Part shown: piece by piece, positions 3,501-54,430 of the stretch
How the letters are laid out: each line of letters starts with the position of its first letter
Numbering within the stretch: position 1 is the first letter of the stretch
Source of the DNA: a virus
DNA length: 64,000 nucleotides
IMG/VR virus record: IMGVR_UViG_3300027702_000001
Strand: one strand, 5' to 3'
The notes under the pieces: model-generated
What the model was told of the DNA's origin: nothing
Seen by the model: the letters and a program-made list of their open reading frames with translations, nothing else
Databases searched by the model: none
Made by a program: the position numbers and the translations under genes

Positions 3501-6500
3501 AAGTCATAAATGTACGCTTTTCTGATGGTATCGCCAAATTCTTGATCACCAGTGTATCCAGAATACTGGTTCACTGTCTTGTAATATGCTTCTCTATTAA
3601 TATAGAGATCATTGATTGAGATCAGGCGTGATGCCTGACGATACATTTCAGGAGCAGATCCCAATGTATCCTCAAGAAGATCAAACAGAATGTTTGAAGC
3701 AGATGTTACGTTATAGCAAACACCACCACCAAATAGTAGAGTATTGTTTAGTACAGGTGCGTTTCTACTAATACCTTGGTTAGTGAAGTAACTACCGTTT
3801 CCAGCAGCAGCATCTTTAACAACACCGATAACGATGTCGAAGAGAGAACTGATAGTTGAAGATTCAACGTTACAAGCACCAGATCCTGCCTGATCGTATG
3901 TGATAGTGAGATCACGAACAGCGGCACGTTCACCTGTTAGAGGCCACTCGCCTGGTAACGTACGTGAGATGCCATCTATGTAATTCTGTGGGTTACTTGT
4001 ACCACTGTTGAACAGATCTACAGTGATTCCCATCAATGATGTGATAGCAGATGCTTGAGTAGCACATCTTGTTGCTCCACCACCACCTGTGATCCAACTG
4101 ATTGAGTTAGTTGTAGAACTGACGAATGTGTGGTTATAGTTACCACCACCCTCTACAGCATTAGAACTAGCATATGCGAATGTATGAGGATACTGTTCAC
4201 TAGAAGGTGCAGGGTTAACATTAACCTTGATTCGACCATTCTTAAACTTGATTCCGTTTGCAGCAGCACTGGTAAATGTGTGAGTGTAGTTACCACCAGC
4301 AGAGATTGCGTTAGGTGTAGCACTTACAAATGTGTGAGCAGTTGTGTTGGTTGAAGGAGTTCTGCCAGAAGCAAGAACGTTGACTGTGACTGTAGTTGCA
4401 GTAGCAGCAGTAACTTCAAGAGGAACATCGTATGCTCTATCCTTCTTCCAAGTAACACCACCAGATGTTGCTGAAACAAAGGTGTGTGCAGTAACGTTAG
4501 TTGAAGGAATACCATCAGAAAGGAGAACCTGAACCTTGAAGGTATTAGCAGTTACGTTAGAGATTTCCAACCAAGAGTTTGATGCAGGGTCACTGCTTCT
4601 TGGATATGCGTGGTTAGTTCCATTACCATCCTGAGCACAAGTAAATGTAACTCCATTATCAGCAATCTTGATTTGATCACCATTGGAGAACCCGTGCTGA
4701 GGAATAGTCAGCGTCATAATACCAGTTGTACCGTTATAATCAGCAGCAGTAACTGTATGAGTTGTAGTTGTAGTTCTAGGATAAGAATGGTTGGTTGCGT
4801 TATCGTCTTCCTCACAAGTAAATGTAAGTGAGTTAGGTTGAATCTTAAGATGTGATCCAGTAACAAGACCGTGACCATTACCAAGAGTCAAGATCATCAA
4901 TCCTGTAACGGGATTGTATGCAACGTTTGAAGGCGTGAAGTTAACTGTGCCTGTAGTACCAACGTTTACAGTAAATGTATTTGTAGCAACGTTTCCAACA
5001 GGAAGGTACTTGTTAGCAGCAGGATCAGATACACGAGGATATGAATGAACAGTATAGTTGTTGTCCATATCACAAGTGAAGTTCAGGGAGTTGCTGACAA
5101 TCTGAACGTTATCCCCGTTGGCAAACCCGTGGTTAGGAACCGTAAGAGTTAGAACACCAGTTGCAGGAACATATGATGCATTAGTTGCAGTAAATTCAGA
5201 ATCACCAATCTCAAGAACAGTTAGAGATTTACCTGATGCATAGTCATTTACCGAGACATCATTATTGGTTATGGAACGAGGATATGAGTGTTGTGTAGCA
5301 TTACCATCCTTAGTACAAGTAAATGTAAGTTTATTATCTGGAATCTTGACGTGTCTACCAACATCCAAGGTGTTGGAACCGATGTCAAGGAACATATCAC
5401 CAGTTGCTTGATTGTATATTGCGTTCGTTACATCGTAGGTAACGTTAGCAGTTGTACCAACATTGACTGTAAATGTAGAACTTGTAGAACCTGTAACGGG
5501 GAGAAGAGCACCGTTTGAAGGATCAAGAGGTCTTGGATAAGTATGCTCTGATTGATTACTGTCAAAGTCACAAGTAAACTTCAATCCATAAGTTGCAATC
5601 TGAACAGCATCACCTGTTACCAGACCGTGACCAGTCTTAGTCAAGGTCAAATCACCTGTTGCTGGATTATAAGTTGCGTTTGTGGGAGTTAGTTCACCAG
5701 TTGTTGAACTGCTAGAGTCAATAGTAATAGTAGTGTCATACTGAGGATAACCTTCAGTGTAACCATTAACATTAACTAACTGCTGTCTCATCACCTCAAT
5801 AGCGATGTCACGTGCCTGTTCGAAGATGTACTTAACTTCAGTAGACTGTGAATTGATGTGCTGGATAGCGTTTGCATCAGTAATATAGAACTCAGTTGCA
5901 TACCAGACCTTGTTATTACCACCGTACTGAAGGTTCCACGCCATTGCTTCAAGGATGTCAATAACATCATCGATACAAGACTGATAACCATAACCACCAA
6001 ATGTAAGGTTGGGGTATTGAGCATATCCACGTCCTACAGCAGTAGAAGCGATAAATCTCAAGTTATTGAGGATCTCGTTACCTGCGTCGTAGTGCTTATT
6101 AGTAGTAGCGTTATTATCATAATCACCACGTGGAACTCCACCACCAATAGCATTTCCACCTTGTCCACCGCCACCACCAGCACTGAGATCTTCGAAGGGA
6201 GTAAACCCAAGTTTATTGCGGATCGCGAGAACTGACATATCTCTCGCCATCTTATAAGCATAGATTGTCTCTTGTGATTGACCAGTGACGTGACTGAGAC
6301 CCATATCTGTATTCAGATAGAGTGCTGCAGCATCATATACTTCACTGTTAGAAGAGAATCTCAAATCGTGAGCAACAGAGTTGATGAAATCAACGATGTC
6401 ATCCTCACAATGAACCTTACCACCAGGAACTCTGAAGTTGTAATGCTTGAATGCTGATGTCTTAGTTACAATGTCAACTGCTTCAGCAGCGATAGTACGA

Positions 6501-9500
6501 GCATTTCTTTCAATGATATTTGCAGAATCAAGTGCTCTATGTGTTCCTTGGAAGATCTTAGGATCGGGAGGATAGAATGTGCTCTCTGTAATTACTGATC
6601 CAGTTAGATCGTAGTTGACAGTAGCATCATATTCTTTTCTGTATGCAGTCAGGTCACTATACTGAAGTTGATAGAAATCATCAATAGTATTAGGAGTTGT
6701 ACCTACAATATTAGCAATGTTCTCGTTTCTACCTACCAAGAGGTTCTGAAGTGCTTTATTTGCAAGGAACTTGACGTGCTCAAGAGCATCAAGCATTGCA
6801 AGCAATTCGTGCTCAATATAGTTAATATTACTCTGTGAATCAAGATAAGAATCAATCATACCCTGAATATTAGAGTTACCACCAGTAATCAAGTCACCTG
6901 CAACAGCGGGCACGATGTGATCTCTAATATCTCTAACACATTTATCTCTGCTAGGAATGTCAATCTTATCAACTTGGATAAAGTTGACCATAACGTTCCA
7001 TTCTTGCTCCATCATAGAGACTGCTTCATCAGCAATCGCACCACGGTTGAAGTAAAGAAGATCAGCACCATCTCTAAATCTATGTCCTGTTGGAGACATA
7101 ACTTCCAACATATTGTCAATCAAGTCAGAGATGAAAGTTGTAATTGCAGATGATGCAGGAGATGCGAAATAATTAGGAACTCTAATTCTGTTTGTGTACT
7201 CGCCAGTTAGATCAGTTGCATCTTTAGTAATGATGTCAACACAGATCTTACCAACTTCACGCCAAGTGTAGATTGACTGTAGAAGTTCACCGTTGATATG
7301 CTTCAGAGCACCAGATCCTTCTAAGTATCCTCTACCTGCAACGATTGTGTGATAGTTACCACCCAACTTAAGGTCATCGATAATAGCAGGGATGATAAAG
7401 GAATGAGTATCGCGAATACACTTATCAGTACCTTGACTTGAAGTACCTGTGTCACCTGGAATAGTAAATGCAGGATATTTCGCCTTCATTCTACCGACTG
7501 CTTCTTCAGCGATCCAATAACGGTTCTTATAGATGATGTCACCACATTCTCTATAAGCATCACGAGAAACATCAACTTCCTCTGTCATAATCTCTTCACG
7601 CCAGAGTTCTACTCCATCGGCATTAGCAGAAGAGATGATAGTCTGTTGATATGTCGCGTAGACAGCAGAGAGTTCCATTGGGAATGGTGCTTCTCCGTTG
7701 AAACCAAACGAGATGTCAAGAGCACGGAAATCATAAACGGTGGGGGGTATAAACCCACTAGAATAGCTGGCGGTTCCTTTTCTGATAATAAGGTTATCCA
7801 TATTACCTGTGAAAGTCTCACCATTGTTCCAAGATGCACCAACAGTGATAGGACTATTACCATAGTCTGAAGCGTCAGTGTAATCTGATCCAACCTGTTG
7901 TCCCGCAACGAACAGTTTGGTCACATTAGATGCTCTGGAAATAGCAATGTGATACCACTGATTTGCATTAGGAATAGCACCTGCACCAGTGATATGGTCA
8001 GATGTAGCAATACCAAACTTCAGTGATGTACCCTGCAAGAAGATTGAACCAGCACTGCTGCTGGATGCAGTTCTGAAATCAACAAGTCTTTGTGTTCCAG
8101 ATACAGTTGTAGGATAGATCCACATCTCAATCGTATAATCACCAGTGCCAAAGGCAAAGGCAGCATTAGAAGCGTGATTGATTCTAGAAGATGTACCAGA
8201 GAAATCTAGTGATCCTGTACCAGTTCCAGGGTTCAACTTATCAACAGTAACGTTGTTATAAGTGATTGTGGAGTTTGTGATGTACTCAGCAGCAGTGAAT
8301 GCACCAGTAACACCTTTTGTATATGCCCATTTAGAACCAGCATTGGTTCCGATGATCTCTGCAACAGCACCTGAAGATACGCCTTTCAGTGTTTGACCGA
8401 AGTTGAAGAATCCACCAGATGATTTGTCCTTATAAGAATGCTTGATAGAACGGATTGTCTCACCTTCAGTAAAGGTGTACGCTGGTGCAATTCTAGGAAC
8501 ATTACTAATAGACCACTGATAAGTTGCAGGATCAGCACCAGTAGGATCTTGTAAGGTATCAGTAACAATTCTGAAGAAGTTTGCAACAGCAGATGTTTGA
8601 GCAACACAAGCATTTGCATTAGGAATTGTAGTTCTACCTTGTGAGTAGTCTGCCTGAGGTGCAGTTGATGTAACTGCTGCTTGGAATGCCGCTCTAGTAC
8701 CTGGAGATGCACTTGTACCAAGGTTTGTAATCAGAATGTCCATCAGTGTAGTGATGGCAGCAGCAACTGCCTGACAGGTCGGAGACGCAGTGTCAGCAGT
8801 GATAGAAATAGTTACTTGGTTCCAACCGTGTGATCCTGCCTTAGTGACAGCAATATTTCTCATAATATCGAGAGACATTGCCTTTGCCTTAGTAAAGGAG
8901 TTGACAATAGTGTCTCTATCACCAGATGTCACACCATAATGAAGGATTCTGTCTGTTGCTTCCCAGATGAAATCGTTACCACCGTGTGCAACGTTATAAG
9001 CAAGTGCTTCAATAACATCAACGATGTCTGATAGGCAATGCTCATCTCCACCAGATACGTTATATCCTGGGTTCTGAGTCTTAGCATAATGAAGTGATTC
9101 GTAAGCAATGTACCATTTGTTAGCAAGTAACAAGGTTCTAGCGTCACCGTGACTGTTGCTTACAACTTCATATTCTGGAGTGATGGTAAGATCTTTCCAC
9201 TGAGACAACGTTGTGTGCTCTGTGGTGATGTTAACCATATTAATACACTGGTTAGCGAGGTCTCTCGCAGCATTCATTGCATATACAGTCTGTGCTTCCT
9301 GTCCACCAACGTGATAGACAGTATTACTCTGAACATAGAAGTTTGCAGCATCCCAAACTTCAGAGTTACCATCGTGCTCAAGTTGCCAAGCAATTAGGTT
9401 GAGCATATCAATGATGTCATCCTCACAGTTAACATTGCCTGTAGGAATAGTAAAGGAGGGGTAGAAAGCCAACATTCTGCCCACCGCTTCTTCAGCGATG

Positions 9501-33209: not shown

Positions 33210-33241
33210 TTGGTGTGGTCTCCTGTGTTGCTTATACTAAT

Positions 33242-33300
33242 ATTATAGGGGATAGGGACGCGATTGCTCGTGGTGATGTGCCACTAATCGAACTGTCCAC
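33242..33300 (-). promoter_or_regulatory. Early promoter element 1 (palindrome + TATAAT)
   Basis: Plus strand GTGCCACT-aatcga-ACTGTCCAC at 33278-33300, 30 bp from ATTATA at 33242-33247. Confidence 0.75.
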
Positions 33301-33334
33301 TATCGATTGAAATTGGTCGCTTGACGTGATACGG

Positions 33335-33658
33335 TTATTTACCTACACCATAGTCGGATGCACTTCTCTCAAGTTGGTATAAACTTCCGTCTCTATATCC
33401 ATCCTTATATGATTGTTCGATCTTTTCATCGATCTTTTCAAAGTCATCTTCTGAGAGACCACTCTCTTCAAATATGAGAGCATTATCTGAAAACTTTTTC
33501 AACTCTTCGAGAACCTCGTCATATGAAAATTGGCGGTTTATGGCATTATCTCCGAATGCTAGTTCATAGACCTCTTCAATAAATTCGTTTTTTGTCATTT
33601 GCTTTTGTACTGTGAGATTGTTCAATGTGAGATTAAGATCGGTAAAAATATCGTGCAT
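33335..33658 (-). CDS. Early-region hypothetical acidic protein
   Basis: Track ORF, co-oriented in an operon. Confidence 0.65.
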   Translation of the reverse strand: MHDIFTDLNLTLNNLTVQKQMTKNEFIEEVYELAFGDNAINRQFSYDEVLEELKKFSDNALIFEESGLSEDDFEKIDEKIEQSYKDGYRDGSLYQLERSASDYGVGK

Positions 33659-33663
33659 AGTGC

Positions 33664-33858
33664 TTAGAATGGGTTTGTCCAGTTGTATGCTTGCCAGTCG
33701 GTAACCATCCCATCCTGATTGAGACAGTCAACAAAATTGTTCCAACTCTCACGTTTTGCGATTGTGTCACCTCTGAGAGACCTATCCTGAGCAACTGCCA
33801 CTTTCCAGTTGTAACGAAATTGCTCTAGAACCTGTGCTTTAGTTGCTCTCCAAGTCAT
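33664..33858 (-). CDS. Early-region hypothetical protein (64 aa, Trp-rich)
   Basis: First ORF after promoter element 2; AGGAG RBS. Confidence 0.75.
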   Translation of the reverse strand: MTWRATKAQVLEQFRYNWKVAVAQDRSLRGDTIAKRESWNNFVDCLNQDGMVTDWQAYNWTNPF

Positions 33859-33890
33859 TTGTGAAATTCTCCTTTGTTTGCTATGTACTT

Positions 33891-33948
33891 ATTATAACGG
33901 ATCAGATCCGCCTGTGTAGGGTAGGTGTGCCAGTTCGTGAACTGTCCT
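33891..33948 (-). promoter_or_regulatory. Early promoter element 2
   Basis: GTGCCAGT-tcgtga-ACTGTCCT at 33927-33948, 30 bp from ATTATA at 33891-33896. Confidence 0.75.
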
Positions 33949-33979
33949 AGAAAGTGGTCAGTCTTAACTGTCTCACCTA

Positions 33980-34129
33980 TCATTTATTAAGAGGACTATT
34001 AAAATATGCTTTATTTACTGTGTAGATGGTAAAAATAGCGACGATGATCCCTAAAAACCCTAACCACAAAATTGGGGAATGGGGGAAATCATAAAATGGG
34101 ACTTCTGTGGGAACTGTTGAAAATTGCAT
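33980..34129 (-). CDS. Small membrane protein (49 aa)
   Basis: Hand-translated MQFSTVPTEVPFYDFPHSPILWLGFLGIIVAIFTIYTVNKAYFNSPLNK; one TM helix. Confidence 0.6.
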   Translation of the reverse strand: MQFSTVPTEVPFYDFPHSPILWLGFLGIIVAIFTIYTVNKAYFNSPLNK

Positions 34130-34130
34130 C

Positions 34131-34205
34131 TTAGTTAGGATTGTAGTAATTGAGAAATAGCACTAATATAAGTGCGATGAGTAAAATTGAAATTAATGTG
34201 ATCAT
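34131..34205 (-). CDS. Tiny hydrophobic peptide (24 aa)
   Basis: MITLISILLIALILVLFLNYYNPN; ATGA-coupled upstream and 1 nt from the next ATG. Confidence 0.4.
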   Translation of the reverse strand: MITLISILLIALILVLFLNYYNPN

Positions 34206-34354
34206 TCTGTGTAAATGTATGAGTTACCAGTATCATATACATCCGAGAAGAGTTGATAATATAGGTCATTCATTAAACCAAATTCAAAACTAGTGCTCGC
34301 GTGCTCTTCAGTCACTCCCTCGTAGCATTTGAGAATTTCATCGTATTGAGTCAT
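34202..34354 (-). CDS. Early-region hypothetical protein (50 aa)
   Basis: Start moved to ATG 34354, since the longer track start lies upstream of promoter element 3. Confidence 0.6.
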   Translation of the reverse strand: MTQYDEILKCYEGVTEEHASTSFEFGLMNDLYYQLFSDVYDTGNSYIYTE

Positions 34355-34378
34355 CTTTTCCTCTGTGTGTATGTCCTT

Positions 34379-34437
34379 ATTATAAGGGATGGGATTCTGA
34401 TCTGTGTGTGGTGTTGTGACAGTAGTTAAACTGTCAC
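34379..34437 (-). promoter_or_regulatory. Early promoter element 3
   Basis: Perfect palindrome GTGACAGT-agttaa-ACTGTCAC at 34416-34437, 31 bp from ATTATA at 34379-34384. Confidence 0.8.
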
Positions 34438-34451
34438 ACAACCGCTTGACT

Positions 34452-34877
34452 TTAGTAAACAATGCACTTATTAGATACATTGATGATTGTGAAACCGAGT
34501 TTTTTCAAAATGTTTCTGTATCTTGCGATCTGAGTATTCTTGCGATATTCCCAAAGATCATCGCCAAATGCGATATAAGAAACTTTTGCTACTTTAGTTT
34601 TATCAATGTGGATTGCTCTGTAATCATCCTGACTAATGTCATCGTGGGCAACTTCGTAAACGATCTTAGCAACTACCTCGCCGCCGATGATTAGATTTGA
34701 AAATTGTGAACTCTCGTGCTTATGGTGAACTGAAACACCATTTTTCCAGTCTCCAGATCCATATGTGTTGATGCGATCTAAAACTAGTGATTGATATACA
34801 TCGAGTTTAACCTCTGGATCAAGACCAATTCTAAGTGTGTCTTTTTTGATCAATTCTTTGTATTCTGTAGGTGTCAT
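34452..34877 (-). CDS. Early-region hypothetical protein (141 aa)
   Basis: First ORF after promoter element 4. Confidence 0.75.
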   Translation of the reverse strand: MTPTEYKELIKKDTLRIGLDPEVKLDVYQSLVLDRINTYGSGDWKNGVSVHHKHESSQFSNLIIGGEVVAKIVYEVAHDDISQDDYRAIHIDKTKVAKVSYIAFGDDLWEYRKNTQIARYRNILKKLGFTIINVSNKCIVY

Positions 34878-34900
34878 AGTTGTTTGTTGCTTATACTAAT

Positions 34901-34959
34901 ATTATAGAGGATGATGCCCCAATAATAAACAACGTATGTGCCACTAATACAACTGGCAC
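34901..34959 (-). promoter_or_regulatory. Early promoter element 4
   Basis: GTGCCACT-aataca-ACTGGCAC at 34938-34959, 31 bp from ATTATA at 34901-34906. Confidence 0.8.
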
Positions 34960-35177
34960 TAGAATCTTTCTAAAACTTTGCATTTTGTGTAATCGTAAAC
35001 AGGATGGAATAATGTTTCATCGTTACAGATCTCCATTTGTGGTCTACAATAGCGTCCCCATCTTCGGATAACTGTTCCAATAATCCGCTGACCTATTGGA
35101 TCAGTATATGCAACGATGTCACCTATACTAATCTCAGCGAATGACTCATAAGTGTTGTATTCTTTAATTTCGCTCAT
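34959..35177 (-). CDS. Early-region hypothetical protein (72 aa, SH3-like beta pattern)
   Basis: ISIGDIVAY...IIGTVIR; stop abuts palindrome 4. Confidence 0.65.
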   Translation of the reverse strand: MSEIKEYNTYESFAEISIGDIVAYTDPIGQRIIGTVIRRWGRYCRPQMEICNDETLFHPVYDYTKCKVLERF

Positions 35178-35404
35178 TGTGCAACCGCTCTTGTTTCAAT
35201 GATTATATCTCTAACTCTCTCGCGATCGAGTGAGTCACCATCACCGAACTCAATATTAGTGTTTGATGCACATAGATCGAGGTATCTGAGTATCGCGATT
35301 GCGATCTCTCCAGTTGTTAATCCATCGATAGGATATAATACATCGGGATGATATGGTGCATAAAACATTTCGATGTAGTCTAGAAATTCTTGAAAATTGC
35401 TCAT
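35174..35404 (-). CDS. Early-region hypothetical protein (76 aa)
   Basis: Start moved to ATG 35404, which has an AGGAG RBS; C-terminal FGDGDSLDRERVRD motif. Confidence 0.65.
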   Translation of the reverse strand: MSNFQEFLDYIEMFYAPYHPDVLYPIDGLTTGEIAIAILRYLDLCASNTNIEFGDGDSLDRERVRDIIIETRAVAQ

Positions 35405-35408
35405 TAGT

Positions 35409-35603
35409 TTAAACTCCTTTAACTCTTGATTGTAGGTAAGTTGATTGTGCTTGACATACATTGTCAACTAGGTTATCGAATGTTTGAACATCCCAACCTT
35501 TTTGCTCTGCAATGTCTAACTCATATGCTGTCATTACGAGGTCATAGAGTAACTCATATTGACCGTTTGAGACTTCGATGTTCATTCCTTTGATTGATTT
35601 CAT
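35409..35603 (-). CDS. Early-region hypothetical protein (64 aa)
   Basis: First ORF after promoter element 5. Confidence 0.65.
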   Translation of the reverse strand: MKSIKGMNIEVSNGQYELLYDLVMTAYELDIAEQKGWDVQTFDNLVDNVCQAQSTYLQSRVKGV

Positions 35604-35630
35604 TTAGTTTCCTTTGTTGCTTATGTCCTT

Positions 35631-35688
35631 ATTATAGAGGATCAATACCGCTCTGGGATGCTTTTGTAGTCACTTTGTGAACTGTCAC
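35631..35688 (-). promoter_or_regulatory. Early promoter element 5
   Basis: TAGTCACT-ttgtga-ACTGTCAC at 35667-35688, 30 bp from ATTATA at 35631-35636. Confidence 0.75.
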
Positions 35689-35836
35689 AATGCTCCTTGA
35701 CAAGATACTCGCCTGTCATTATTCTTTCAAATACTGCGGTCTGTTCATCATTTAGATCAAAATCCATATCTCTGAGAACATCCCACAATTTCGTCATTTG
35801 ATATGACTCGTCGAATGACATAGGTATATTAAGCAT
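35642..35836 (-). CDS. Early-region hypothetical protein (64 aa)
   Basis: Track ORF whose 3' end runs through palindrome 5. Confidence 0.6.
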   Translation of the reverse strand: MLNIPMSFDESYQMTKLWDVLRDMDFDLNDEQTAVFERIMTGEYLVKEHCDSSQSDYKSIPERY

Positions 35837-36050
35837 CGTAGTTAACTCCGCTGAATACTCTTAACTGAGTTGCATAGTTAACAAGTTGATTGAATCCATC
35901 TTCATTAACCTTAATCTGATCCAATAGTTTTGAGTCTGCTTCCTCATCTAGAAACCTCATAATGGTCTCAAATTGCTCTAACGCTTCAAAACTAAATCCA
36001 GTCTCTGCTTCAACTTCTGTGCGATCTGGGAATGTTGAGTTTTCAATCAT
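35829..36050 (-). CDS. Early-region hypothetical protein (73 aa)
   Basis: First ORF after promoter element 6. Confidence 0.65.
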   Translation of the reverse strand: MIENSTFPDRTEVEAETGFSFEALEQFETIMRFLDEEADSKLLDQIKVNEDGFNQLVNYATQLRVFSGVNYDA

Positions 36051-36075
36051 TTGTTTTTGTGTTGCTTATGTTCTT

Positions 36076-36133
36076 ATTATAGTCAATGTATGTGAACTAT
36101 GGTGTTACTGTGTGCCAGTAATATAACTGTCAC
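36076..36133 (-). promoter_or_regulatory. Early promoter element 6
   Basis: GTGCCAGT-aatata-ACTGTCAC at 36112-36133, 30 bp from ATTATA at 36076-36081. Confidence 0.8.
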
Positions 36134-36145
36134 ATAAACACTTGA

Positions 36146-36319
36146 CTATGCACTTTGTAGTTCTTCTAATAGAGAGTCAAGTTCTTCAGCACAATGACCA
36201 CATCGCCATCCCTCTATCTCATCACCATAATATGCATATCTGTTGACGAATCTGCCTGATCCTGCTTTACAAGACTGACCACAGTCAACACAAATTTCTG
36301 AATCAAATGTATTTTTCAT
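36146..36319 (-). CDS. Small zinc-finger-like protein (57 aa)
   Basis: Hand-translated MKNTFDSEICVDCGQSC...WRCGHCAEELDSLLEELQSA; CxxC...CxxC. Confidence 0.6.
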   Translation of the reverse strand: MKNTFDSEICVDCGQSCKAGSGRFVNRYAYYGDEIEGWRCGHCAEELDSLLEELQSA

Positions 36320-36474
36320 TGACATTCATCCTCGAATCTCTCGCGAGCAATATATTCACAATGCTCAACAAGTGCTTCCTCACTCATCATTTTATCGAGA
36401 CCTGTGGATCTCATTAGTTCTAACTCATCTTCATAGAATCCGATAAGCATATCTTCGTGATGTGAAACTGACAT
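36316..36474 (-). CDS. Early-region hypothetical protein (52 aa)
   Basis: Hand-translated MSVSHHEDMLIGFYEDEL...ARERFEDECQ; ATGA-coupled; GGAGG RBS. Confidence 0.55.
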   Translation of the reverse strand: MSVSHHEDMLIGFYEDELELMRSTGLDKMMSEEALVEHCEYIARERFEDECQ

Positions 36475-36612
36475 TTAAACTTCCTCCCAGTAAACTGTAT
36501 CAACTTTTTTGTATAGGTCTGCAACTTTGCATCCCTTACGTCTAGCAACTTGTCTTGCTATCATCGCTTCCCATCTTAGGAATGACTCATAGTTTCTGTT
36601 TCTACTGCACAT
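36475..36612 (-). CDS. Early-region hypothetical protein (45 aa)
   Basis: Hand-translated MCSRNRNYESFLRWEAMIARQVARRKG...; first ORF after promoter element 7. Confidence 0.5.
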   Translation of the reverse strand: MCSRNRNYESFLRWEAMIARQVARRKGCKVADLYKKVDTVYWEEV

Positions 36613-36635
36613 AATGTTTGTTTGTTTATACTATT

Positions 36636-36693
36636 ATTATAGTAAATGTGTGGTGCATATGGTAACATTATGTGCCACTAGTTGAACTGTCAC
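36636..36693 (-). promoter_or_regulatory. Early promoter element 7
   Basis: GTGCCACT-agttga-ACTGTCAC at 36672-36693, 30 bp from ATTATA at 36636-36641. Confidence 0.8.
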
Positions 36694-36923
36694 ACTATAC
36701 GATCCATAAAGATCCATTCATATGTACCATCCTCAGGGTCGCGTCCATTAACAACGAACTCCTCATAAATGGCATCAGCATCTTCAAAACGGTTGGCATC
36801 AATGTGCTTTGTGATCACGTTCATATAGTGCTCACCCATCAGATCGATTGATGTTTGCATTTGTTCGTTAAATTCCTGATTGTGGTCGTACTCGTGGATC
36901 TCGTTATTTAATTCGTGTTCCAT
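36690..36923 (-). CDS. Early-region hypothetical acidic protein (77 aa)
   Basis: Its TGA stop is supplied by palindrome 7 (GTGACAGT). Confidence 0.65.
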   Translation of the reverse strand: MEHELNNEIHEYDHNQEFNEQMQTSIDLMGEHYMNVITKHIDANRFEDADAIYEEFVVNGRDPEDGTYEWIFMDRIV

Positions 36924-37407
36924 AGGTTTGGATTGCTTTGTTGGGGATAGTGTAACCTAGTCGTGGGTCTTTTCTGATCTTATCAGAATGAAATTGCTTT
37001 TTAAGACTAGGTAGTAGCAAGTTCAGTACGTCATCGCCTGACATTTGCCAGACTTCAACAACTTGACCATTTTGGTAGCGTGCAAAGAAGTGATCTTTGT
37101 ACTTGCCAATTTTCTCTTCTTTGAGATACTTGACTTGATCTTCCCAAGTATCTTGAACTGAAATACCATTGTAGGTGGCGGTCAGTTTCTTACCTATAGT
37201 AGATTTATACTCAACAGGATTCCCATCCTGATCAAATGCATCAGCACCCGAGTAATCATCAGCAACATTATGCCCAAGGATACCCGCTAAGTGAATTTCA
37301 CGTGAGCGTGCATAACTGAATGGATCTCCCCATCCGTGTTGGTCGCAAAGAGCATACATTTGCTCAAAAAGTTGCTGATATTGTTGTTCGGGTGTTGTCA
37401 CTTGCAT
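36904..37407 (-). CDS. PvuII-like PD-(D/E)xK restriction endonuclease family protein (167 aa)
   Basis: HGWGDPF, GADAFDQDGNPVEYKS, KIGKYKDHFFARY and YGTRIK align by eye with PvuII as recalled (HGINDIF, GNDAVDNAGQEYELKS, IIAKYRQVPWIFAIY, HGTKIY). Start moved to ATG 37407, downstream of promoter 8. Confidence 0.7.
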   Translation of the reverse strand: MQVTTPEQQYQQLFEQMYALCDQHGWGDPFSYARSREIHLAGILGHNVADDYSGADAFDQDGNPVEYKSTIGKKLTATYNGISVQDTWEDQVKYLKEEKIGKYKDHFFARYQNGQVVEVWQMSGDDVLNLLLPSLKKQFHSDKIRKDPRLGYTIPNKAIQTYGTRIK

Positions 37408-37429
37408 AGTTTTTTGATTCGATACCTCT

Positions 37430-37487
37430 ATTATAAGGGTTAAACCCATCCGTGTGTGGATGGGTGTGCCACTAGTCAAACTGTCAC
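37430..37487 (-). promoter_or_regulatory. Early promoter element 8 with nested hairpin
   Basis: GTGCCACT-agtcaa-ACTGTCAC at 37466-37487, 30 bp from ATTATA at 37430-37435; the spacer holds the perfect 8-bp stem ACCCATCC/GGATGGGT. Confidence 0.8.
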
Positions 37488-37488
37488 A

Positions 37489-37722
37489 CTAGCAGGATGC
37501 AGGTGAGTAGTTTTGTGGTTCAGTTAAGAAGTCAGTCACCTGATAATGAAGATCGAGACGTGAATTGATTGTTTCAATCATTTCTCGCTTACTCATCAAT
37601 CGCATTGACATAGCATTAACCTCACCCCACTTATTTTTCAAACTGAGAGTATAAACAAATTTCTCACTCAAAATCGCGTGTGGACGAAATTCGACTGTCA
37701 TCGATCCTGCTGTGAGTTGCAT
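37489..37722 (-). CDS. Early-region hypothetical protein (77 aa)
   Basis: First ORF after promoter element 9; AGGAG RBS. Confidence 0.7.
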   Translation of the reverse strand: MQLTAGSMTVEFRPHAILSEKFVYTLSLKNKWGEVNAMSMRLMSKREMIETINSRLDLHYQVTDFLTEPQNYSPASC

Positions 37723-37745
37723 TTGGTCTCTCCTGTGCTTTACCT

Positions 37746-38069
37746 CTATATTATAGAGGATGGGGCAAGGTCTAGTGGTTCGGGTGTGACAGTTTGTGGT
37801 TTGGCACGAAGTGTCATCTGTTGCCAGTCATCCCACTCTGTTCCATAGTTGGATTCCACTAGTGGTTTAATCTGTTGCATCAATCCGATTATCGCATCCT
37901 TACCATAATAATCGTGTTCGATAGTATCGTGACCAGTACAACTTGATCCCCACTCTGTTACGTCGCTGTCAATTCTTGCAACTAAACCGCGTGCATAATA
38001 GTGAAGCATACCTAGTTCTCTTCTTGATAATGCTATTGTGAACTCTTTTTTGTTGTTAGTTGGATTCAT
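37746..38069 (-). CDS. Early-region hypothetical protein (107 aa)
   Basis: Track ORF whose 3' end runs through element 9. Confidence 0.65.
   Translation of the reverse strand: MNPTNNKKEFTIALSRRELGMLHYYARGLVARIDSDVTEWGSSCTGHDTIEHDYYGKDAIIGLMQQIKPLVESNYGTEWDDWQQMTLRAKPQTVTPEPLDLAPSSII
37750..37807 (-). promoter_or_regulatory. Early promoter element 9
   Basis: GTGACAGT-ttgtgg-TTTGGCAC at 37786-37807, 30 bp from ATTATA at 37750-37755. Confidence 0.7.
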
Positions 38070-38229
38070 TGATTTTTTCTAATTTTTGGACTGCGTTGAA
38101 TAGGTCGATGTGTGCAGCGTCAGGTTCATCGCCATTTTCTTTGAGTTCTGATCTATAAATGTCAGGTAGATCTCTGACTGCATCATAAATCTCCTCAAAT
38201 TCACCTCTGGTGAGTGTTAGAGTTATCAT
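38056..38229 (-). CDS. Early-region hypothetical protein (57 aa)
   Basis: Hand-translated MITLTLTRGEFEEIYDAVRDL...; ATGA-coupled; GAGG RBS. Confidence 0.55.
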   Translation of the reverse strand: MITLTLTRGEFEEIYDAVRDLPDIYRSELKENGDEPDAAHIDLFNAVQKLEKINESN

Positions 38230-38384
38230 ACTATCCTCGCATCTAATACTGTAACTGGATCTAAGAAGAAACCATTGTCAACTGCATTGACTACTACGTT
38301 TTGGTTGATAGCGTCACCGTCAGGGCAATTAATATCGTCCTCTGTGTCTACTTCAACTAGTAATGTGATTTGTACTCTTGTCAT
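38226..38384 (-). CDS. Early-region hypothetical protein (52 aa)
   Basis: Hand-translated MTRVQITLLVEVDTEDDINCPDGDAINQNVVVNAVDNGFFLDPVTVLDARIV. Confidence 0.6.
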   Translation of the reverse strand: MTRVQITLLVEVDTEDDINCPDGDAINQNVVVNAVDNGFFLDPVTVLDARIV

Positions 38385-38407
38385 CGTATTAGGTTTTGTA
38401 ATATTGT

Positions 38408-38567
38408 GTCAGAGCGAGGGTATCCCTCAGCGATTTGTAATGTGAGCAACGCTCTGACGGTTGAGTGTGGAAGAGGTTCGATTTAAAGATCTGTTCCACC
38501 TGATCTATCCTAACTTGTTTACCAAGTGTAATTAAGATCAGGGATGAGATCACCCTTGCCCTCCACA
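38408..38567 (-). ncRNA. Candidate structured non-coding RNA / long 5' leader (about 160 nt)
   Basis: Begins at the predicted TSS of element 10. Helices: 38408-38416/38450-38458 (9 bp perfect), 38416-38428 hairpin, 38499-38505/38536-38542 (7 bp), 38513-38527 hairpin, 38559-38566/38467-38474 (8 bp with G-U). Confidence 0.5.
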
Positions 38568-38572
38568 TTTAT

Positions 38573-38631
38573 AATATACCAATAAAAAAGACCCCTGTGG
38601 GGTCTTAGTAGTACAGTTTGTTAAGTGTCAC
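38573..38631 (-). promoter_or_regulatory. Early promoter element 10 with nested terminator
   Basis: AGTACAGT-ttgtta-AGTGTCAC at 38610-38631, 31 bp from -10 TATATT at 38573-38578; the spacer has AAGACCCC-ACA-GGGGTCTT-TTTT on the minus strand. Confidence 0.7.
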
Positions 38632-38636
38632 ATAGT

Positions 38637-39065
38637 TTACCAGAATGTCCCCAAATGTGATACTTTATCGAAGAATGCATCACGATATGTATCGTCAATG
38701 CTATTGGCATCTACCGTATAAAGATCTCCTTTGAGTTTCTTACATTTACCAGTAGATCCCTCGATCCACATTAAATCCTTTGTGTGTCCACCTCTATCTG
38801 CAGGTGCGGTCGCTGTGATTTTAATATCATCGCCATCATCTACCTTAGCGAATACCCAAGTAACTGAAGCATCATCCGCCACAACTTTATCTCTCTTGTT
38901 GAGAATGACGTTTACGTGAGTGTGAATTGCTCTTGCAATTTCTGTTGATGTACCAACAGATTCTGCTATTCTCTTGTCAATATTGGCGAGTCTATATGCC
39001 TTCGCCTTCTCTGACAATTTAGTGAGCAGCAAATCTGCATACCCATTAACTGCTGTCGTTGCCAT
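38637..39065 (-). CDS. Hypothetical protein (142 aa)
   Basis: Downstream of the helicase; ends 6 bp before palindrome 10. Confidence 0.75.
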   Translation of the reverse strand: MATTAVNGYADLLLTKLSEKAKAYRLANIDKRIAESVGTSTEIARAIHTHVNVILNKRDKVVADDASVTWVFAKVDDGDDIKITATAPADRGGHTKDLMWIEGSTGKCKKLKGDLYTVDANSIDDTYRDAFFDKVSHLGTFW

Positions 39066-39099
39066 TGTTAATCTCTGTAACTGTACTTGATAGAGTTAT

Positions 39100-40353
39100 T
39101 TATGCAACTAGCGACTCGGGGTGAATACCGTGGACGAAAATTGCATCTACCACTCTCTGAAGACGTGTTGCGATGTGCTTACCATAGTTCGTATAGGTTG
39201 GTACTGTCACATAACCAGTTGATTTACGATACATCTTAAGGTTACCCGCTGTCAGTTCACCTGAGCGAATACGCTTAGCGTCCTCTTTATGTAGTCTGAT
39301 AACACGTCCAATGGTCTGTGCCATTTCGACTGTTGCCAACTGTCTCAACAAAATAGTATGAGTTAGACCGTGAACATTGATACCTTCAGATAGGATAGAG
39401 TAATGGAAGATGATAAACTTACGGTCATCATCACGTCCGAACTCATCCATAGTATTGAAGAATTGCTCACGGTTCACTTTCTTGTCATTGACATATGCAC
39501 CGAACTTACTAGTCACGTGTAGAACATCGTAACCGCGTTTCTTCAACTCTGATAGCAAGTTGGTCTGACCTAGCATATTACCTAGGATCTTAGAACTAGG
39601 AACTGCACATAACACTTTCTGTGCATTCTTGTCATCAAGATTGTCAAGTACATCGAGAACTGTTTGTGCATCAGTATCCCAACTCATTTTCTTGACTCTC
39701 TCAATATCTTGCTCAAATGGAACAATAGTTGGGGGGATGATAGCACCGCTGTCAATCAATTCTGGTGCAGGTACTTGCTCAATGATAGTACCATAAACAA
39801 TTTGATTGTTCATACCACGGTTATGCCTACGTGCGATTCGTGGTGTTGCTGTGAAGAAATAGCAACGTTTTGCTGTTTCGCTGATCTCTTCAGTTGATTC
39901 GAAGAAATTACGTGATACACTATTGTGTGCTTCATCAAAATATGCTACATCAATGTCAATGCCAGACTCAACAACCCTTCTCAATGAGTGGTATGTTGTG
40001 AATATAACGTGAGTTGCAACTGCACTATTCTGTTTGTTATTCTCAATGAATTTTGCAATTTTCTCAGGTTTTGTGCCTGACTCGTGATGAGTCTCTCCAG
40101 AGTGGACGTGATAGACGTGAACCCAATCTGCCTTAAGGAACTGCATAAACTCCTCACTCAACTGATTAGCGAGTAGGATACGAGGTGCAACAACTACAAT
40201 GGTGCTGTTGCTGTTAGTGTTGAGCGTCCTTAGAGCATCATAGATCATACACATTGTCTTACCACCACCTGTAGGGATGATGATCTGACCTTTAGTCTCA
40301 CGCTTCATAGCGTCTACTGCTCTCTGTTGGTGCTTGCGAAGATTAACGCTCAA
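39100..40353 (-). CDS. SF2 DEAH-type helicase (ResIII/UvsW-like)
   Basis: IIIPTGGGKT (Walker A), YFDEAH, FFTATP, ILSEGINV, QTIGRVIR. TTG start at 40353 with AGGAG 6 nt upstream. Confidence 0.9.
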   Translation of the reverse strand: MSVNLRKHQQRAVDAMKRETKGQIIIPTGGGKTMCMIYDALRTLNTNSNSTIVVVAPRILLANQLSEEFMQFLKADWVHVYHVHSGETHHESGTKPEKIAKFIENNKQNSAVATHVIFTTYHSLRRVVESGIDIDVAYFDEAHNSVSRNFFESTEEISETAKRCYFFTATPRIARRHNRGMNNQIVYGTIIEQVPAPELIDSGAIIPPTIVPFEQDIERVKKMSWDTDAQTVLDVLDNLDDKNAQKVLCAVPSSKILGNMLGQTNLLSELKKRGYDVLHVTSKFGAYVNDKKVNREQFFNTMDEFGRDDDRKFIIFHYSILSEGINVHGLTHTILLRQLATVEMAQTIGRVIRLHKEDAKRIRSGELTAGNLKMYRKSTGYVTVPTYTNYGKHIATRLQRVVDAIFVHGIHPESLVA

Positions 40354-40378
40354 ATGTCTCTCCTGATCTGTTACCAAC

Positions 40379-40438
40379 AGTATAGCACCAAAAAACCCAC
40401 CGATGGGGGGATCGATGGGTCAGTTGTTTGATTGTCAC
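40379..40438 (-). promoter_or_regulatory. Early promoter element 11 with nested terminator
   Basis: GGGTCAGT-tgtttg-ATTGTCAC at 40417-40438, 32 bp from -10 TATACT at 40379-40384; the spacer on the minus strand is the 10-bp stem ACCCAUCGAU/AUCGGUGGGU + U5. Confidence 0.65.
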
Positions 40439-41375: not shown

Positions 41376-41568
41376 AAGACCAATGGGGATCATCGTCACC
41401 GTCAGACCAGATCCAGACTTCTGGATTGTGCTTAGATGACATAAACATACGTCCATCCTGTCTACGTTCTTGAATTTCGCAGATCGGATTGTTATTCATC
41501 AGTTCAACGAACTGTTTCTTTGTTCGGTCAGATTTTGGTGTGACCTTCACCAATTTCCTCAAGGGCAT
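41359..41568 (-). CDS. Hypothetical protein (about 69 aa)
   Basis: Track ORF, co-oriented. Confidence 0.6.
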   Translation of the reverse strand: MPLRKLVKVTPKSDRTKKQFVELMNNNPICEIQERRQDGRMFMSSKHNPEVWIWSDGDDDPHWSYERIA

Positions 41569-41704
41569 TTTCTAATTTTTGATAAAGATCATTATATTTG
41601 ATACCGAGAAGTCCTTCCCAGTTCTGTTGTGACTTGTCATCAAGCATTTGCATTGCTGACATACATCCTAACAGTTCCTTAGGTGTGAGTGCGAGATTGT
41701 TCAT
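41528..41704 (-). CDS. Hypothetical protein (58 aa)
   Basis: Hand-translated MNNLALTPKELLGCMSAMQMLDD... Confidence 0.45.
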   Translation of the reverse strand: MNNLALTPKELLGCMSAMQMLDDKSQQNWEGLLGIKYNDLYQKLENALEEIGEGHTKI

Positions 41705-41822: not shown

Positions 41823-42148
41823 CGGTCTTCGATCGGTGGTAACATCTCATTTCCTGGGTGGTCATTGGTTTTTCCCTTGTAATTCTTTACATTTTTAAAG
41901 GAAGAATCATCAATTTCAAGATCATCCCATTGATGTGGATAAACTAATAAACAACACTTATTAAATGGTTGTCTAAATCCCTTTGGATTAGGTTTCTTTG
42001 AAATACAAAGAGTAATATACAAATCATCAACAAATTCAATCGTGCCCTCGAAACCCTGATACCTTGCAGGCATTCCAACTTCGAGTGATTTTAGTATGTT
42101 TCTGATTTCCAATGGGATAGACTCCGAAATGAATAAGGGTGTTGACAT
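41819..42148 (-). CDS. Hypothetical protein (109 aa, SH3-like)
   Basis: EGTIEFVDDLYITLCI...CCLLVYPHQW; TAATG-coupled. Confidence 0.7.
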   Translation of the reverse strand: MSTPLFISESIPLEIRNILKSLEVGMPARYQGFEGTIEFVDDLYITLCISKKPNPKGFRQPFNKCCLLVYPHQWDDLEIDDSSFKNVKNYKGKTNDHPGNEMLPPIEDR

Positions 42149-53563: not shown

Positions 53564-54430
53564 TTATGCTTGATAATATCCAGTAGCAGAACCCATCACA
53601 GTGAATGATTGCTGAGCAGTGTTAGGTGTGTAGACCAATGCGAATGAGACAACAACATAAGTATCATCTTCACCCCAACTTGGTTCAGCACCACCTGACC
53701 AGTATATAGTTGTTGACTGTCCGTTAACGTTAACTGATGTAGGAATACCCTCACCACCTTGGTTTTTGATAGCAACAGTCATACCATATGCGTGTGCACC
53801 ATCAGTAGGAACGTTAGTAAAACTGATAGTGAAATTACCACCACCAGTTTTGTTGATCCAGATTGAGTTTGAATTATTATAATCGTGAGTTATAGAACCA
53901 CTTGTTGTGTAATAGTAAACGCTCTCTTTCGTTTCACCGTAATGAAGTGTACCAGTGAATGTAGCGTGTTGTGATTCAATATCAACAAATTCAGCGTATG
54001 ACAGGTCATCGTCACCAAGTAGTGTCCAAGATGCACCGTTCTCAATGGTAACAGTATAACCTGAGTTAATTTGAATTGGACCTGCTGAGAATCCGTTTGT
54101 GAACTCTACACCGCCGTTTGCAGTAGGACCGACAGTTAAGTTCTCTCCAATATTTGTACCGTTAGTTCTAATGATAGAACCTTCACCAATAGCAGGACCA
54201 CCCCCACCAACATCAGTCCACCCAGGGTTGCCTTGTGCAGCATCCTGTTTGTAGATCTGTGCCATATCTTCAGTCGTGTTATAGACTAAAGTACCAAATG
54301 CGGGTGTACCGAGGGCATTGACCTGTGACTGGTTAAGTGGCGGTAAATTTATTTGTTCGGAAATAGACCACGCTTCAACTAGACCTCTAGTTGTCGCTTG
54401 TATCTGATTACCATTAATCTTTGTTGACAT
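53564..54430 (-). CDS. Virion structural/fibre protein (288 aa)
   Basis: MSTKING N-terminus, GTLVYNTT, NGFSAGPIQINSGYTVTIENGASWT motifs; late promoter upstream. Confidence 0.7.
   Translation of the reverse strand: MSTKINGNQIQATTRGLVEAWSISEQINLPPLNQSQVNALGTPAFGTLVYNTTEDMAQIYKQDAAQGNPGWTDVGGGGPAIGEGSIIRTNGTNIGENLTVGPTANGGVEFTNGFSAGPIQINSGYTVTIENGASWTLLGDDDLSYAEFVDIESQHATFTGTLHYGETKESVYYYTTSGSITHDYNNSNSIWINKTGGGNFTISFTNVPTDGAHAYGMTVAIKNQGGEGIPTSVNVNGQSTTIYWSGGAEPSWGEDDTYVVVSFALVYTPNTAQQSFTVMGSATGYYQA

Follow-up and report, generated by a model that had tools for sequence, protein, structure and literature searches.

The DNA analysed here, called the window throughout, is a stretch of 64,000 nucleotides that forms part of a T4-like cyanomyovirus genome. 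GenBank matches were to Prochlorococcus and Synechococcus myoviruses only, and the closest relative record shares 86% DNA identity across the locus of interest, which lies on the minus strand among a run of small early genes. All features of this locus given below are on the minus strand, and positions are those of the window unless another record is named. The small genes are punctuated by 11 co-oriented early promoter elements (33235–40438, minus strand, 33.2–40.4 kb), in each of which a spacer of about 29 nt separates a palindrome from a TATAAT box; the palindrome resembles a binding site of a dimeric regulator. Ten of the corresponding leaders are 15–25 nt long and unstructured, and most of them begin with AUAAGCAAC or near it. 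A folded leader is found in the window only at element 10 of the 11.

Element 10 starts just downstream of the stop codon of a 142-aa ORF (38637) with a degenerate copy of the upstream palindrome common to the 11 elements (38609..38632), which we recognised through a by-eye alignment with the other ten. A terminator scan placed an intrinsic-terminator-like hairpin (38606–38588) and its T run within the promoter spacer (together 38581..38606), and this hairpin is invariant across all close relatives. An extended −10 region follows (38573..38581), consisting of TGG and then TATATT (38578–38573), a box that lines up with TATAAT in the other ten. As this box ends 6 nt before the G that opens the first stem of the folded leader (P1, see below), that G occupies the usual +1 position, and we predict from the consensus spacing that transcription starts at 38566. 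The first real ORF behind the leader (38226..38384) encodes 52 aa and belongs to no known family (no Pfam or PHROG match); it shares 87–90% amino acid identity with its counterparts in two related contigs (L005 and L006). A 425-aa SF2 helicase (ResIII/DEAD, PHROG 16; 39100–40377, minus strand) is also encoded nearby, and in most relatives this gene is found close to the folded element, either upstream or directly downstream of it. Such proximity may reflect plain synteny or a functional link.

The initial annotation had proposed a structured non-coding RNA directly after promoter element 10, and every pairing that it listed is present in the minus-strand sequence. P1 joins 38566–38559 with 38474–38467 (8 bp, three of them G.U). 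It encloses a 7-bp stem (38542–38536 with 38505–38499) and a small hairpin (38527–38523 with 38517–38513, loop 38522–38518), together with an internal GUGGAA (38499–38494). In a second domain, a 9-bp stem (38458–38450 with 38416–38408) encloses the hairpin at 38428–38416. Folding beyond chance was evident already in this single sequence: the 184-nt stretch reaches −54.2 kcal/mol, compared with −37.2 ± 4.1 kcal/mol for dinucleotide shuffles (z = −4.16), and none of 200 shuffles folded as well. Comparison with relatives confirmed it, so that the claim of a structured RNA was borne out by covariation, the start site itself being predicted.

Relatives of the first domain, module D1, were collected by protein-anchored and pattern searches of IMG/VR and JGI metagenomes, which gave a first set of 13 variants plus the phage P-RSM6. 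In this set both flanks of the module were kept, while the middle was swapped for unrelated sequences of differing length. Across the 14 sequences, 96.7% of the pair cells were paired and changes on both sides were found at 10 of the 15 pairs; an independent MAFFT alignment (A2) gave the same picture as alignment A3. A pattern without a fixed P1, followed by a covariance model, enlarged the set to 81 distinct sequences, which came from marine viral contigs and from the cultured cyanophages P-RSM6, P-RSM1, S-SSM5 and S-SSM7; a plain 15-mer scan returned mostly chance matches and needed filtering. The collection of homologues, which the initial annotation had proposed as a check, thus ended in clear covariation. 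In the enlarged set 94.3% of the pair cells were paired (68.7% in shuffles), 301 cells had changes on both sides (about 100 in shuffles) and compensatory changes were seen at 12 of the 15 pairs, although these counts are somewhat inflated because alignment A3 was fitted to the model. When the 3′ partners of the 81 sequences were slid by one to three columns, pairing dropped to 27–73%.

In the window, the covariance model has a sole match, of 72.4 bits, which delimits the conserved scaffold of D1 (38467..38566). According to the model, the 8 bp of P1 are followed by a 3-nt bulge (38558–38556), by the 2-bp stem P2 (38555–38554 with 38476–38475), by two unpaired nucleotides and by P3, a stem of 4–5 bp with a variable tip (38551–38547 with 38492–38488), and an unpaired, conserved strand of 11 nt (38487–38477) forms the 3′ side. 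The minimal size of the module is 53 nt. P1 takes more than 12 unrelated sequences among the relatives, which always pair, whereas the junction nucleotides and the 11-nt strand are almost invariant, including where the closing stem is wholly different; altogether, about 25 unpaired or junction nucleotides are nearly invariant. The G.U pair at the border of P1 and the bulge never changes, and the 81 sequences contain more than 25 further G.U cells, which points to selection on the transcribed (RNA) strand. A recurrent-looking word downstream of P1, ATTCAY, was dropped, since it was present in only 7 of 69 variants, with 2.3 expected. On this comparative sequence evidence, D1 is a real RNA family with strong covariation, a conserved, strand-specific, modular, single-copy and non-coding RNA fold.

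The sole ORF in the gap is a 59-aa frame that runs across both modules (38389..38568, read from 38568 to 38389), with its ATG upstream of the predicted +1. The initial annotation had named conservation of this frame, in place of compensatory pairing, as the observation that would speak against an RNA, and the relatives keep the compensatory pairs and not the frame. The gap between the two conserved cores of D1 has a length of 0, 1 or 2 modulo 3 in 27, 29 and 13 variants, respectively; any open frame across the element exists in only 29 of 69 variants; and even close relatives differ in the frame of the conserved 3′ core, with all three frames represented. The 59-aa ORF, which also has no PHROG match, was therefore rejected as a gene. 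Short hypothetical CDSs annotated in GenBank over the modules (SSSM7_050, SSSM5_057, the first ~30 codons of CPXG_00171, and metaG-MbCM1_077, in records GU071098, GU071097, HQ634193 and JN371769) are probably annotation artefacts.

The D1 model found one copy in the window and one each in G001, P-RSM6, P-RSM1, S-SSM5 and S-SSM7, and none in Syn9, S-PM2, P-SSM2, P-TIM68 and G002. P-HM2 (23 bits) and MbCM1 (19 bits) gave weak matches with scores that overlap those of chance matches, and judging by eye we tentatively regard both as a diverged D1 subtype. In P-HM2, the diverged D1-like unit lies inside a 9-bp outer helix in the intergenic region between PHM2_074 and PHM2_075 (L391 1470–1600, NC_015284 ~41450–41580), and a G-rich module behind it is also found behind D1 in L160, L195 and L237. 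A relaxed core pattern was run over 185,579 species genomes as well. The matches listed were in unrelated bacteria only, with no cyanobacterium in their titles, and they scored 19–32 bits (in spite of being pre-selected for the core) compared with 36–81 bits for the viral copies. By model score, the bacterial matches listed are at chance level and lend no support to a host or other bacterial origin of D1. The genes behind D1 vary among relatives and include a 52-aa ORF, a homologue of a 107-aa ORF, the SF2 helicase, other ORFs, and the pseudoknot module described below together with a tRNA-Thr.

Four related contigs (L008, L010, L012 and L014) carry an identical block of terminator, promoter and D1, with different flanking genes on both sides. 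Such exchange, which resembles that of the promoter-early stem-loops discussed at the end, is what would be expected of an element acting at the DNA level, be it a recombination cassette or a mobile palindromic repeat in which the hairpins are incidental; the GenBank CDSs in S-SSM7, S-SSM5 and P-RSM6 could be taken in a similar way to favour a real 59-aa protein. The G.U pairs are strand-specific, however, and the unpaired strands remain unchanged next to covarying helices. A MITE-like repeat was rejected because D1 is single-copy in the window and in five complete or near-complete phage genomes, unlike a MITE, and the protein fails on its unconserved reading frames. We consider an explanation at the level of DNA or of the 59-aa protein as largely refuted here, with almost negligible probability.

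In the window sequence, pairing is possible between the internal GUGGAA and the 3′ strand of P1, and the initial annotation had put forward two alternative folds and, among other possibilities, a riboswitch-like leader. A riboswitch-like or protein-operated leader, in which switching between two folds controls the downstream gene, would be in keeping with the conserved, aptamer-like core of D1 and with a possible local alternative hairpin in D2. The relatives told otherwise. GUGGAA is part of a purine-rich strand in the larger D1 tips; of its 26 carriers, only 10 would allow it to pair (≥6 bp) with the 3′ P1 strand, and 43 variants are without it. Where P1 had changed, GUGGAA did not follow. 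With the pairing not kept and the motif mostly absent, a conserved alternative-fold switch was rejected, and with it the proposal of two folds. Nor is there a conserved expression platform, because the sequence and the genes behind the element, which can include a tRNA, differ between relatives; the consistent class of downstream gene by which a riboswitch is recognised is absent among D1 relatives, and we found no terminator behind D1 or D2 and no sequestered ribosome-binding site. A leader of the riboswitch kind is thus very unlikely.

Comparison with known RNA families gave no assignment. Rfam 15 had no match in the whole window at gathering thresholds (including glnA, wcaG, manA, hammerhead, pistol, Y RNA and Yfr1) and nothing over the element at E values up to 10, and no family was found over short variants and related loci (14 to 20). 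ARAGORN called no tRNA in the window; over 25 related loci it called only the tRNA-Thr of L202, which is separate from D1. These searches, the first of them suggested by the initial annotation, are in agreement with its statement that the RNA does not match hammerhead, glnA, wcaG or tRNA motifs. The D1 family is absent from Rfam, and it is unannotated or mis-annotated in GenBank. The minimal size of 53 nt and the conserved junction nucleotides do resemble those of small ribozymes, and a tRNA-Thr lies downstream of the module in L202 (by ARAGORN) and L210 (by eye), so that we considered a small self-cleaving ribozyme or an RNA-processing site that sets transcript ends. The lack of any hammerhead, twister, pistol, hatchet or other Rfam match even at E up to 10, and of a tRNA-like fold by ARAGORN, makes either extremely unlikely.

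The variable tip of D1 holds, in the window, an apical insert that we call module A (38499..38543). It is built from the 7-bp stem and the small hairpin (38527–38513), together with an internal loop that is conserved, and compensatory changes were found in both stems (L098, L241, L229 and L238). Many D1 relatives do not have it. In P-TIM68, module A forms a hairpin by itself where a 5′ UTR is predicted to start, in an unannotated gap (L145 1497–1547, KM359505 ~53767–53817), and a start codon that has a good Shine-Dalgarno sequence lies about 25 nt behind its end.

The second domain, module D2 (38408..38458), has a closing stem of 8–9 bp, a conserved strand of 21 nt and the hairpin at 38428–38416. 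It covaries among five gap-free sequences, a small sample with 100% of the pair cells paired and two to four pair types at each of the three outer pairs. The first, long exact pattern for D2 was too strict and had no match in viral contigs, and shorter patterns gave matches. D2 is missing from several D1 loci, occurs without D1 in G002, directly behind a promoter, and is found among small ORFs in MbCM1. In L227, L258 and P-RSM1, a diverged D2 is nested in the tip of D1. The G002 locus also contains about 200 nt of extra non-coding sequence between a 144-aa gene and the D2 promoter (L016 2020–2200).

Further modules were observed at related loci. Directly behind D1 in L183 (~6435–6503, minus strand), and also in L185, L249, L202 and L210, there is a hairpin whose loop of about 15 nt pairs with sequence just downstream, as in an H-type pseudoknot; compensatory changes affect both the stem and the loop pairing (L210 and L185), and the module has no Rfam match. 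In L202, a tRNA-Thr(UGU) gene (1771–1845, minus strand, by ARAGORN) is inserted between the leader modules and a small ORF, which suggests that modules and tRNA belong to one early transcription unit. A second tRNA-Thr begins at the cut 3′ end of L210, where it was read by eye and ARAGORN made no call; these are the two relatives with a tRNA-Thr just downstream of D1 modules. L249 has a leader of about 330 nt (~2830–3252, minus strand) with three tandem D1-like units, the second of which is enclosed by an extra 8-bp helix, and in L249 as well as in the L237 class the 3′ side of helices repeatedly carries a U-N-U-A-A-G motif. Modules therefore occur alone, in tandem or nested, and are swapped between loci. 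By this comparison of sequences, D1 and D2 are independent modules, and the nest-and-swap architecture of the D1 family is unusual.

The position of the modules relative to promoters is also recurrent. Among the 70 unique variants, a −10 box that has at least five of six matches to TATAAT and ends 0–10 nt ahead of the outermost P1 pair is seen in 41, and in 26 of these 41 the distance is 5–6 nt. The promoter of the P-RSM6 class is set back upstream by about 20 nt, and an 11-bp outer helix, P0, extends from the predicted +1 and encloses D1; MbCM1 and P-RSM1 have the same outer-helix arrangement. The lone D2 of G002 and the lone module A of P-TIM68 begin 1–2 nt past the predicted +1. A start at +1 is not universal, since a promoter directly upstream is lacking in about nine variants (the L237 class), which are embedded in larger structures. 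On the other side of the module, an ORF starts 17–31 nt behind P1 in about half of the variants, and the commonest spacing is 21 nt. In S-SSM7, a second complete promoter element was found within about 60 nt of D1 (L388 1562–1640, GU071098 ~41987–42060), which would give the downstream gene tandem promoters, with only the distal one adding the D1 leader.

This arrangement is reminiscent of 5′ stabilisers such as the 5′ hairpin of ompA, the leader of T4 gene 32 and the SP82 5′ stabiliser. D1 could accordingly be a plain stabiliser or insulator acting in cis, whose helix protects only its own mRNA and may free the ribosome-binding region, with no factor acting in trans. P1 or P0 at the predicted +1, a start codon most often 21 nt past P1 and an element that is portable ahead of unrelated genes all suit such a role, and the missing terminator behind the modules, combined with the steady spacing to the start codon, keeps it alive. 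ORF spacing and the missing terminator indeed fit a plain cis-acting leader at least as well as the reading that we prefer below. The roughly 25 nearly invariant unpaired or junction nucleotides, on the other hand, would be superfluous for a protective hairpin; the genome has one copy where ten sister promoters of the window have unstructured leaders; and some copies are embedded without a promoter. For these reasons we regard a simple stabiliser as unlikely, though of the rivals it is the one to be taken most seriously.

A processive antiterminator would similarly be found close to a promoter. In phage HK022, the precedent for this mode of action, putL and putR are two-stem RNAs of about 70 nt that lie just behind the early promoters and are indifferent to the gene that follows. 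If D1 worked in this way, the nascent RNA would bind RNA polymerase in cis and permit readthrough of cassette terminators. The promoter-proximal position in an early region of terminator-bearing cassettes, the indifference to the gene behind and a core that is independent of downstream sequence would be in line with this. Yet the first terminator-like hairpin behind D1 in the window is about 1.1 kb away, a put-like element needs no paired 5′ end at +1, and the second promoter of S-SSM7 follows within about 60 nt. A put-like function is on balance a very poor candidate, if one less improbable than a ribozyme.

Our preferred reading, which we hold tentatively and with somewhat less than even confidence, is that D1 is an early non-coding RNA domain that keeps its 5′ end in a helix and binds some factor through its conserved junction, and that it is not a switch for a single gene. 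RNA polymerase would start at, or within one nucleotide of, the first base of P1, and the 5′ end would become locked into the helix once the 3′ strand of P1 had been made; in the P-RSM6/P-RSM1 class, the extra outer helix P0 would do the same. The junction is far more conserved than a protective hairpin would need, and in our view it would be the surface that a trans-acting factor, be it a protein or a second RNA, recognises, while the tip of P3 would serve as a docking site for inserted modules such as module A or a D2-like unit. The RNA domain would be made early in infection, one per genome, as the leader of whichever gene cassette follows. The single copy, the invariant junction and the variable downstream genes together argue for a role of the RNA of its own and against a regulator of one gene.

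Cyanobacteria have both RNase J and RNase E, and a paired 5′ end could hide the transcript from 5′-end-dependent decay by these host enzymes or by a pyrophosphohydrolase. Cyanophage infection induces host RNase E (PMC9692554, PMC3113571), and Synechocystis depends on this enzyme for the clearance of fragments that have strong 5′ structures (PMC8682795). The 11-nt strand was considered as an RNase E site and rejected by eye as a misfit to the cleavage signature of the cyanobacterial enzyme, an A at −3 and a U at +2 (PMC8682795), a result that is neutral for the preferred reading. In a broader version of that reading, D1, D2, module A and the pseudoknot module would form a toolkit of self-closing, nestable domains of a trans-acting early RNA, which might, for example, resist nucleases and block host RNase J/E in the manner of an xrRNA, or serve as a decoy for a host factor. 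We consider this toolkit quite unlikely, more so than the simple stabiliser. As for a possible ligand of the junction, the invariant 11-nt strand may be read as two T-loop-like pentads, U-N-N-R-A and U-N-N-R-A, with one G between them. Interdigitated T-loops grip the tRNA elbow in T-box leaders, in RNase P and in the L1 stalk, and by analogy the D1 junction could bind tRNA; the tRNA-Thr genes just behind the D1 modules of L202 and L210 are of note here.

T4-like cyanophages kill a large share of the Prochlorococcus and Synechococcus of the ocean, and the control of their early transcripts is barely known. At least four cultured phages whose hosts are available carry D1 (P-RSM6, P-RSM1, S-SSM5 and S-SSM7), which makes it directly testable. 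Should the junction bind a host nuclease, a defence protein or a tRNA, D1 would represent a new kind of phage early RNA effector; should it do no more than stabilise mRNA, it would be a modest addition to the known 5′ stabilisers. Modular nesting, the single copy and the predicted +1 position suggest that RNA domains, and not only genes, are shuffled as cassettes in hyperplastic regions.

Among known systems, the ompA leader, the T4 gene 32 leader and the SP82 stabiliser share with D1 a helix that includes the first transcribed nucleotides (predicted in the case of D1) about 20 nt before the start codon. Each of them is a simple hairpin or a pseudoknot that belongs to a single gene, whereas D1, with a putative stabilising effect, has an invariant junction, nested modules and unrelated genes behind it. 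The likeness to the put RNAs of HK022, set beside D1 by description only, lies in being promoter-proximal and gene-indifferent. Closer in host range are the cyanophage orphan RNAs of Rfam (manA RF01745, wcaG RF01761, glnA RF01739, Downstream-peptide RF01704 and PhotoRC), which are likewise conserved folded RNAs of cyanomyoviruses; they were found by covariation, are mostly of unknown function and are in part modular (Weinberg et al, 2010, PMC2864571). They differ from the present RNAs in that no Rfam model matches D1, D2 or module A at E values up to 5–10. The 8,495 unnamed candidate structured RNAs reported from IMG/VR, some of them 'consistently positioned upstream of genes', come from the same data source and rest on the same kind of evidence as D1 (Fremin et al, 2023, PMC10690425). 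The main text of that paper names no cyanophage leader of the D1 kind; our comparison covers this text and not the catalogue tables (PMC10690425).

The closest likeness of the locus as a whole is to the PeSLs (promoter-early stem-loops) of T4-type myoviruses (Arbiol et al, 2010, PMC2839356; Comeau et al, 2014, PMC4122927). Both combine a terminator with an early promoter where small-gene cassettes of a hyperplastic region meet, and both have near-identical copies that flank different genes in related phages, as in L008, L010, L012 and L014. The locus of element 10, with a terminator inside its spacer and the same cassette between different flanking genes, can be described as a PeSL. A PeSL as described ends at the promoter, however, whereas here one of 11 cassettes runs on, once per genome, into a covarying folded RNA.
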